A DNA stretch of 64,000 nt from a virus. Below the pieces are notes generated by a model that worked only from the letters and a program-made list of their open reading frames with translations, was not told where the DNA came from and made no database searches. Of this stretch, positions 1 to 54,014 are shown in pieces (within the stretch, counting starts at the first letter, position 1; each line of letters starts with the position of its first letter). The position numbers were made by a program, and so were the translations under genes. The stretch spans positions 14,034 to 78,033 of the IMG/VR virus record IMGVR_UViG_3300046170_000449; one strand, written 5' to 3'.

Positions 1-1
1 A

Positions 2-340
2 AGTTGGGATAAATGGGTAAACAATAACAAAGAACACTATCAAAAAGTTAAAAAACAAGGGCAAAATTTATTGCATCACAACCACAAAAAATACGAACGC
101 AGAGGGATAACAAAAGAGCAATATGACATTGTCTTTGAGGCCCAAAAAGGTTTATGTGCAATTTGCCAAAAGCCTCCCAAGGATAAACAATCTTTAGCCA
201 TGGACCATAATCATCAAACCAATGAGTTTAGAGGTCTATTGTGCAAAGAGTGTAATAGAGCGCTAGGTTTATTTGGTGGTAACATAGATGTATTGACAAA
301 CGCAGTTACTTATCTTAAAGAGCGAGGAAGTTATGGCTGA
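2..340 (+). CDS. Endonuclease VII-type (His-Me finger) free-standing endonuclease, 5'-truncated by the window edge
   Basis: GITKEQY..Q.GLCAIC...LAMDHNH.T.EFRGLLCKECNRALG endo VII motif; frame is open from position 2, so the true start lies upstream of the window. Confidence 0.85.
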   Translation, partial: SWDKWVNNNKEHYQKVKKQGQNLLHHNHKKYERRGITKEQYDIVFEAQKGLCAICQKPPKDKQSLAMDHNHQTNEFRGLLCKECNRALGLFGGNIDVLTNAVTYLKERGSYG

Positions 341-647
341 AGACAAAAGCAAGTACACGAAACCAGACCTGCGTGAGCGCATCAAAAACAAAGTTATGCG
401 TGAAGGCCGTGGGGGTAAACCGGGAGAATGGTCGTAGCCGTAAGGCTAACTAATTATTTCGGCGCGTAAAGCACAGCTCGTAGCTTCCGAGTATAAGAAA
501 GCTGGTGGCGGGTACAAAGGTGGAGAAGGAAAGAAACAAAAATCTTTAAAGAAATGGGCTAAAGAAGATTGGCAAACTAAAGATCAATATGAAAAAGGTA
601 AGAAAGCTGCTACTGCAGCCAAAAAAGCTAAGGAGAAAAAATCATGA
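333..647 (+). CDS. DUF5872-like basic protein (N-terminal half), interrupted by a 27-nt in-frame coding gap (435-461); probably decoded by ribosomal bypassing
   Basis: MAEDKSKYTKPDLRERIKNKVMREGRGGKPGEWS|ARKAQLVASEYKKAGGGYKG... reads as the conserved GGKPGxWSARKAQL motif once TAG CCG TAA GGC TAA CTA ATT ATT TCG is skipped; absent from the ORF track. Confidence 0.8.
432..461 (+). other. Putative translational bypass (ribosome hop) element
   Basis: Take-off TCG (432-434), stop TAG, hairpin TAGCC-GTAA-GGCTA (435-448), ATTATT, landing TCG (459-461). Confidence 0.75.
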
Positions 648-53937: not shown

Positions 53938-54014
53938 TGGTAGGAATGGTGGGACTCGAACCCACACTGTAGCGATTTTAAATCGCTTGCCTCTGCCAAT
54001 TGGGCTACACTCCT
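53938..54014 (-). tRNA. tRNA-Leu(UAA) with encoded CCA and short variable loop
   Basis: AGGAGTG acceptor, AGCGA-TTTAAAA-TCGCT anticodon arm, GTGGG-TTCGAGT-CCCAC T arm. Confidence 0.9.

Follow-up and report, generated by a model that had tools for sequence, protein, structure and literature searches.

A nuclease cassette and a probable programmed ribosomal bypass in a DUF5872-like phage gene

Introduction

How is a gene expressed when three stop codons interrupt the most conserved part of its frame? The question is raised by a DUF5872-like gene at 333-647 of the DNA stretch analysed here, which is 64,000 nucleotides (nt) long and is called the window. The window covers positions 14034-78033 of IMG/VR record IMGVR_UViG_3300046170_000449, a complete 78,033-bp record with terminal repeats from an uncultured, Synechococcus-phage-like virus. 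The gene is cut by a 27-nt gap, and this gap is the 3' end of a cassette of about 764 nt that carries a nuclease gene. Comparison of gapped and uninterrupted loci indicated that the gapped gene is very probably read by programmed ribosomal bypass, which is the best and by far the simplest explanation. On the same comparative grounds, 333-647 appears to be a repaired copy of a phage gene invaded by an intron-less homing cassette.

Results

The interrupted gene in the window

The reading frame starts at ATG 333 on the + strand and runs for 34 codons up to TCG 432-434. Three in-frame stops follow, TAG 435-437, TAA 441-443, and TAA 447-449. The frame reads ...GAA TGG TCG / TAG CCG TAA GGC TAA CTA ATT ATT TCG / GCG CGT. 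It resumes at TCG 459-461 and GCG 462 and continues for 61 further codons to the TGA stop at 645-647. When the gap (435-461) is skipped, the product has 95 residues (34 + 61). No ATG, GTG, or TTG is present in frame across the downstream 62 codons, indicating that the downstream part can be expressed only by being joined to the upstream part. The features of the locus are as follows.

1..340, + strand: 3' 113 codons of a 202-amino-acid (aa) Endonuclease-VII/HNH homing nuclease gene (PF02945, E 3e-22; PHROG endonuclease VII families)
333..434, + strand: replacement for codons 1-34 of the target gene, carried by the cassette (MAEDKSKYTK...GGKPGEWS; phrog_17747 positions 16-44)
432..434, + strand: putative take-off codon UCG (Ser34), TCG in 98/98 gapped loci listed
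435..448, + strand: UAG stop inside the predicted take-off hairpin UAGCC-GUAA-GGCUA with a GNRA tetraloop (from the fold and from stem conservation)
449..458, + strand: AU-rich spacer (6-16 nt in the family, with no TC in any gap form listed)
459..461, + strand: putative landing codon UCG, aligned with the Ser codon of uninterrupted alleles by junction mapping against near-identical uninterrupted loci
462..647, + strand: downstream 61 codons (ARKAQLVASEYKK...) and TGA (phrog_17747 positions 45-63, DUF5872)

The hairpin, formed by TAGCC (435-439), GTAA, and GGCTA (444-448), had a folding energy of -7.1 kcal/mol and a z-score of -3.7 (-3.66) against shuffled sequences. An ATTATT at 453-458 directly precedes TCG 459-461. 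The pattern TAGCC-N4-GGCTA-N(3-30)-ATTATT was found once in the 64-kb window, where shuffles gave an expectation of 0.01. TCG, the codon on both sides of the gap, is used less by this phage than any other Ser codon (6%).

A tRNA-Leu(UAA) at 53938-54014 (- strand) is the sole tRNA gene in the window, and no phage-borne tRNA-Ser to serve the rare UCG codons is found among the window's tRNA genes. The replacement start at 333-434 also encodes the nascent peptide present at take-off. In the minimum free energy fold, GUCG 431-434 can pair with CGGC 460-463 and close the gap into a stem-loop junction. We rejected this 4-bp pairing as a signal, because the coding sequence alone accounts for it and a UCU or UCA landing codon would abolish it.

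The two halves belong to one gene

The two parts matched contiguous segments of one protein profile. In phrog_17747, the first half matched positions 16-44 and the second half positions 45-63, with nothing missing in between. A search of approximately 5.8 billion proteins found 491 relatives, many of which carry DUF5872; those listed were 87-99 aa long, mostly 94-97 aa. When aligned with 13 uninterrupted homologues, the window showed nine extra codons as one clean insertion at W-S / A-R-K-A-Q, in the block where conservation within the DUF5872-like family is highest. Among 72 uninterrupted alleles, the Ser codon at this site was TCT in 37, TCA in 11, AGT in 8, TCG in 8, TCC in 6, and AGC in 2.

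Synechococcus phage S-EIVl is the one relative in culture; its 784-aa homologue and the window's protein share 70% identity. The DUF5872-like gene of S-EIVl has no gap, and the gapped allele was absent from the cultured phages searched.

These results agree with the original prediction, made from the window alone. The stops, hairpin, ATTATT, and landing codon that it described at 333-647 were found again when the window was re-read. The 95-aa product that it obtained by skipping 435-461 matches the uninterrupted homologues at W-S/A-R-K, and the uninterrupted TGG TCN GCN alleles that it expected in relatives were present in both the homologue alignment and the uninterrupted loci.

Gap forms across loci

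Three pattern scans were performed, two of viral contigs and one of metagenome contigs, and the window is included in their totals. TAG was required as the stop codon in two scans, whereas TAA or TAG was allowed in the third. The cassette gap was found in at least 98 viral and metagenomic loci, representing at least 78 distinct contexts and at least 33 gap forms. Gap lengths among the at least 98 loci listed were as follows.

23 nt: 2 loci
24 nt: 26 loci
25 nt: 1 locus
26 nt: 1 locus
27 nt: 42 loci
28 nt: 10 loci
29 nt: 12 loci
32 nt: 3 loci
33 nt: 1 locus

The gap length was not divisible by three in at least 29 loci (16 forms), and all three phases were represented. In every listed gapped locus that reaches the end of the gene, the downstream frame was open over 48-63 codons and encoded SARKAQ.... 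Because non-triplet gaps occur together with open downstream frames, readthrough of the stops cannot explain expression. A hop from the first Ser codon to the second, or another precise way of skipping, could explain these gaps.

The two Ser codons were strongly constrained. The take-off codon was TCG in 98/98 listed loci, and the landing codon was TCG in 92, TCT in 4, and TCA in 2. In contrast, only 8/72 uninterrupted alleles have TCG at the same site. UAG directly followed the take-off codon in all 33 listed gap forms (other stops lay outside the search patterns), and the stem UAGCC/GGCUA was unchanged in 32 of the 33. This invariance left no covariation to examine. The loops among the listed forms were GUAA, GUGA, GGGA, GCAA, GAAA, and GAGA, all of the GNRA type, and UUAG. 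The spacers, 6-16 nt long, were free to vary in sequence and were 73-100% A+T in the viral-contig forms. ATTATT was just one of many spacer endings; only AU-richness was kept in the family. TC dinucleotides were entirely absent from the gaps of the 33 listed forms, so no competing UCN codon occurs in any frame before the landing site.

Most spacers contain no G; the one stretch of the gap rich in purines, RAGG, belongs to the hairpin's 3' half and lies 9-19 nt from the landing codon. With regard to a nascent-peptide signal for take-off, the conserved cassette-borne start has Glu at position -2 in all gapped alleles, where 62/72 uninterrupted ones have Gln; common descent would account for this difference just as readily as function.

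A mobile nuclease cassette carries the gap

The cassette of about 764 nt consists of the 202-aa nuclease gene, a second copy of the 34 start codons, the UAG-hairpin, and the AU-rich spacer. Its site lies at the TGG/TCN (Trp-Ser) codons of the gene's most conserved motif. The full nuclease open reading frame (ORF; G000:C1:13765-14373) begins 268 nt upstream of the window, and its TGA stop (338-340) overlaps the start of the interrupted gene at ATG 333 (ATGGCTGA). An Endonuclease_7 (His-Me/HNH) domain occupies nuclease residues 122-196 (PF02945, E 1.7e-21 on the full ORF). A nuclease homologue was found in 43/47 gapped rows, whereas none was found within up to 3 kb on either side of 78 uninterrupted loci.

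Gapped and uninterrupted relatives were compared in two close pairs, L131/L023 (98% identical) and L097/L037 (90-94%). In both, an insert of about 763 nt lay between the resident TGG and TCN, and the original gene start was still present upstream of the nuclease in the gapped member. In the window's genome, the resident start is a 34-codon ORF, MTQDSDSSKYTK...GGKAGQ, located just upstream of the window. A TGA made at the junction (CAG TG/A) closes this ORF; the nuclease gene comes next, followed by the replacement start at 333. The same arrangement, a '...GGKxGQ-stop' 639 nt before the ATG, was seen in at least 13 further contigs, and a strict pattern recovered it in 25/77 loci.

The displaced start region was also recorded at L133:1489-1628 (G000:C1:13625-13764), just upstream of the window. 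At the left end of the cassette, between the resident ORF and the nuclease ATG, a small inverted repeat GTGCT...AGCAC is shared by different loci and may form a hairpin that regulates or terminates transcription of the nuclease gene.

The cassette was more conserved than its surroundings. The window's copy was 86-91% identical over all 764 nt to more than 20 loci, whereas the flanks aligned over 0-25% only. The protein encoded by the cassette-borne 34 codons was 100% identical in many loci whose downstream halves were only 75-84% identical. These identical replacement starts beside diverged downstream halves indicate that the start and the gap travel with the nuclease. The nuclease was full-length in 56-60 of 77 loci; in about 15 loci it was reduced to a 3' remnant of 20-91 codons or was gone, and the gap and the intact gene were kept. 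Nuclease lineages just 52-57% identical shared the same architecture. Thus, presence or absence at one site, an element more conserved than its flanks, and nuclease decay were all observed, and they point to the cycle of invasion, decay, and loss that is usual for a homing endonuclease.

In the pair L131 and L023, the flanks are 98-99% identical, yet 8 differences fall within the first 30 nt past the junction. Homing predicts such a patch, which resembles a tract co-converted from the donor allele.

Selection and RNA data

The downstream half of gapped alleles had a ratio of nonsynonymous to synonymous differences per site (pN/pS) of 0.22, with synonymous sites near saturation; the median ratio of the corresponding substitution rates (dN/dS) over unsaturated pairs was 0.08. 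For the same half of uninterrupted alleles, the values were 0.145 and 0.07, respectively. The cassette-borne start had a pN/pS of 0.26. In seven independent pairs with the same gap form and different flanks, 105 synonymous and 29 nonsynonymous differences were counted, giving a ratio of 0.066. The intact frames beside decayed nucleases, the conserved start-bearing copy, and the constraints on the gap are stronger evidence than pN/pS.

One contig of 696 nt, assembled from a random-primed metatranscriptome library, matches window positions 1-478 with 42 substitutions and no indel, and then runs into a diverged downstream half. All 27 nt of the gap are present in it. Among the RNA libraries, X2 alone bridges the gap, and X1, X3, and X5 do not cover it; all shares are small.

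Other ways to read the locus

The cassette might simply have killed the gene, leaving the downstream half as an untranslated remnant whose conservation comes from many recent invasions. The mobility of the cassette lends this some support, as much of the divergence of the downstream half may predate invasion, and one locus, L145, looks decayed. But all listed downstream frames that reach their end are open, including those of the approximately 15 loci with a decayed or absent nuclease, and the architecture persists between distant nuclease lineages. Neutral decay would leave the hairpin, the UAG, the matched rare Ser codons, and the UC-free spacers unexplained, and a dead gene gives no reason for a start-bearing 34-codon copy under purifying selection. 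We consider inactivation very unlikely. The gene could instead yield two polypeptides, with a stop at UAG, re-initiation at a near-cognate spacer codon, and association of the N- and C-terminal fragments. An AUU within 453-458 is a candidate start with UAAGG as its Shine-Dalgarno sequence, the 27-nt forms have two in-frame AUU codons 7-10 nt past AAGG, and T4-type cassettes do split proteins into cooperating fragments (10.1101/2022.08.31.505936). Such a start is not common to the family: the 28-nt forms have an in-frame TGA directly before the landing codon, the in-frame spacer codons differ among the other forms, and the downstream part offers no ATG, GTG, or TTG. The break would also fall midway in the family's most conserved motif, and the matched codons and UC-free gaps would have no explanation, which makes re-initiation highly improbable.

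Removal of the gap from the RNA, by a micro-intron or by nuclease-plus-ligase excision at the hairpin, or its skipping by RNA polymerase, would also restore the frame. The direct repeat UCG...UCG flanks a gap that holds a hairpin and could in principle guide excision. At 23-33 nt, however, the gap is far below the size of any self-splicing intron, and we know of no micro-intron or excision machinery of this kind in phages or cyanobacteria. The metatranscriptome contig, which keeps the whole gap, argues only weakly against removal from the RNA, as DNA carry-over is possible. We give this explanation almost no credence.

Proposed mechanism and its strength

Programmed bypass would proceed as follows. 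The ribosome would translate the replacement start from ATG 333, coupled to translation of the nuclease. It would stall with peptidyl-tRNA-Ser on UCG 432-434, while the hairpin at the A site hides the UAG and so disfavours termination. The anticodon would then unpair from UCG 432-434. The ribosome would slide 24 nt, across 435-458, until the tRNA-Ser re-paired with the first cognate codon, UCG 459-461, and decoding restarted at GCG 462. The outcome would be the normal 95-aa protein. We infer the hop from the 33 gap forms in all phases, the intact frames, the matched Ser codons, the UAG, and the conserved hairpin. The original prediction had proposed such a bypass and had called readthrough implausible; the comparative gap forms favour the former, and gaps in all three phases with intact downstream frames bear out the latter.

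A reason for the gap is suggested by analogy with MobA, the nuclease of the T4 element. A seamless joint between replacement and resident sequence would recreate the nuclease target, and an insert would break the DNA site and leave the protein unchanged. For MobA, the untranslated insert was shown to keep the nuclease from recognising the joint (10.1101/2022.08.31.505936). The insert described here would, by analogy, shield the joint in the same manner.

Several points weigh against a bypass. The support for the hop is entirely comparative. The stem has 5 bp, against 10 bp in T4. The T4 mechanism cannot simply be transferred, given the lack of a mini-Shine-Dalgarno sequence and of auxiliary stem-loops. 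No Shine-Dalgarno-like triplet (GAG/GGA/AGG type) was found in the spacers 5-7 nt before the landing codon. Folds of 380-434, searched for a 5' stem-loop, and of 459-520, searched for a downstream barrier, were no better than shuffles (z +0.49 and +0.81, respectively). Two loci, L134:4477-4530 and L249, have a 24-nt gap, TAGCT-ATAA-TATTA-AATAATT, without the GC hairpin. They nonetheless retain UCG...UCG, the nuclease, and an intact downstream frame, so either the hairpin is dispensable or the allele is newly defective. L145:1016-1090 is the only decayed-looking copy, with a stem mismatch (GGCCA), GCG where the landing TCG should be, and an indel that disrupts the codons for ARKAQ. Finally, the mobility of the cassette blurs which divergence of the downstream half arose before invasion and which after it.

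The hairpin outside this gene

When viral contigs were scanned, irrespective of gene, for TAGCCGNRAGGCTA with TAA after it, at least 98 matches lay outside this gene. No second host gene was recognised among the listed matches, in which matched codons occurred at the chance rate. L229, L236, L222, and L166 have long downstream frames and were considered as further bypass genes, but they were rejected for want of a plausible upstream coding part. The 17-mer TCGTAGCCGTAAGGCTA also occurs in L095, L102, and L129, with the hairpin at about 4546, 1290, and 7988, respectively. None of these is this gene; they share a conserved, unrelated context, ...AATTACACC-hairpin-AGGGGAGACGG....

Discussion

Meaning of the cassette

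Neither this cassette nor bypassing in the DUF5872-like family was the subject of any paper found by full-text literature searches. Long-range bypassing has been known for decades from T4 gene 60 alone, and its sole published extension concerns the same gene and the same element. According to a 2022 preprint by Manning and Atkins, all known homologues of the T4 bypass lie in Topo2L genes of Myoviridae, and these authors call the T4 cassette 'unique' (bioRxiv 10.1101/2022.08.31.505936). An independent family would add another nuclease, another gene, another phage group, and at least 33 natural variants. These variants form a natural mutagenesis series for what a hop needs. A stop within a hairpin, identical or near-identical codons at take-off and landing, and an AU-rich tail that lacks cognate codons are conserved, whereas a long stem, a mini-Shine-Dalgarno sequence, and auxiliary stem-loops are apparently dispensable.

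The series raises a bolder and rather doubtful idea. The 14-nt UAG-CC-tetraloop-GG-CUA with its AU-rich tail might be a portable 'translational intron', acquired or exchanged by unrelated homing nucleases, such as MobA in T4-like myoviruses and the Endonuclease-VII enzyme of this cassette, and sufficient alone, with no mini-Shine-Dalgarno sequence or auxiliary stem-loops, for efficient hops of 23-33 nt. If so, the cassette would represent a minimal natural bypass signal, and nuclease-linked bypassing would be general in phages. The cassette also suggests that an untranslated spacer can serve intron-less homing nucleases as protection for the site into which they insert. Annotation is affected too: genes of this sort are split or truncated by gene callers, so similar cases are probably under-reported.

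Comparison with known bypass systems

Short untranslated inserts of 27-55 nt, called 'byps', reportedly occur in coding regions of the mitochondrial genome of Magnusiomyces capitatus and are said to have been described by Lang et al. in 2014. They resemble the gaps described here in being short, mobile, and numerous, with matched codons and a hairpin. They differ in being eukaryotic and mitochondrial, with many sites per genome and no link to a nuclease, whereas the present gap occupies one site per genome within a homing cassette. In Streptomyces phage genes, short inserts led by UUA have been proposed as bypass sites (PMC10732093). They too are candidates for a programmed bypass in phages that do not belong to the T4 group; their trigger is a rare sense codon rather than a UAG in a hairpin, and their host group is another one.

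The closest counterpart is the T4 gene 39/mobA/gene 60 element with its 50-nt translational bypass, reportedly the work of Huang in 1988 and Bonocora in 2011. In AF158101, the gap of T4 gene 60 reads GGA/TAGCC-TTCG-GGCTA...ATTATT/GGA, and its description in the original prediction was correct. Like the T4 element, the cassette places a free-standing gene for an HNH-superfamily nuclease in a conserved coding region with no intron or intein, supplies a stand-in for the coding sequence that it displaces, and carries a coding gap at its 3' end. Both systems have matched take-off and landing codons with wobble variants, and a UAG directly after take-off within a UAGCC/GGCUA stem capped by a stable tetraloop. 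In the T4 family, GNRA and UUAG loops also occur, wobble take-off/landing pairs have been reported, and the 5' stem-loop and the forward-slippage barrier are themselves poorly conserved (10.1101/2022.08.31.505936). The preference for UCG with rare UCU or UCA found here parallels those wobble pairs.

The differences are equally clear. The target here is a 95-aa DUF5872-like gene of S-EIVl-like phages, whereas in T4-like myoviruses it is the Toprim region of Topo2L. The gap is 23-33 nt long rather than about 50, and, unlike in T4, neither a mini-Shine-Dalgarno sequence at 5-7 nt from the landing codon nor a predicted 5' stem-loop or forward barrier was found. The substitute here comprises the entire N-terminal part, including an ATG of its own, and would give a full-length protein, whereas that of T4 gives one of two cooperating fragments. 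Here, the resident start is left behind as a redundant 34-codon ORF. The nuclease showed no similarity to MobA of phage HY01 (BLASTP, E 9), and the two differ in Pfam families and domain positions.

The original prediction had placed the gap in the same class of bypass element as gene 60. This holds for the proposed mechanism only, as the nuclease is unlike MobA and the host gene is another one. Among the shared features that it named, the stem sequence and the stable tetraloop stand; ATTATT is not conserved in the family. The identity of the stem can be explained by function, because UAG must pair with CUA and CC/GG closes the tetraloop; a shared origin is also possible. We rejected membership in the MobA element family, which fails on nuclease, target gene, and phage group: the layout is analogous, and the components are not homologous. 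Judged by its sequence, the cassette is best described as an analogue of the T4 element and not as a member of it, and nature would thus have, besides the bypass of T4 gene 60, a second such system of independent standing.

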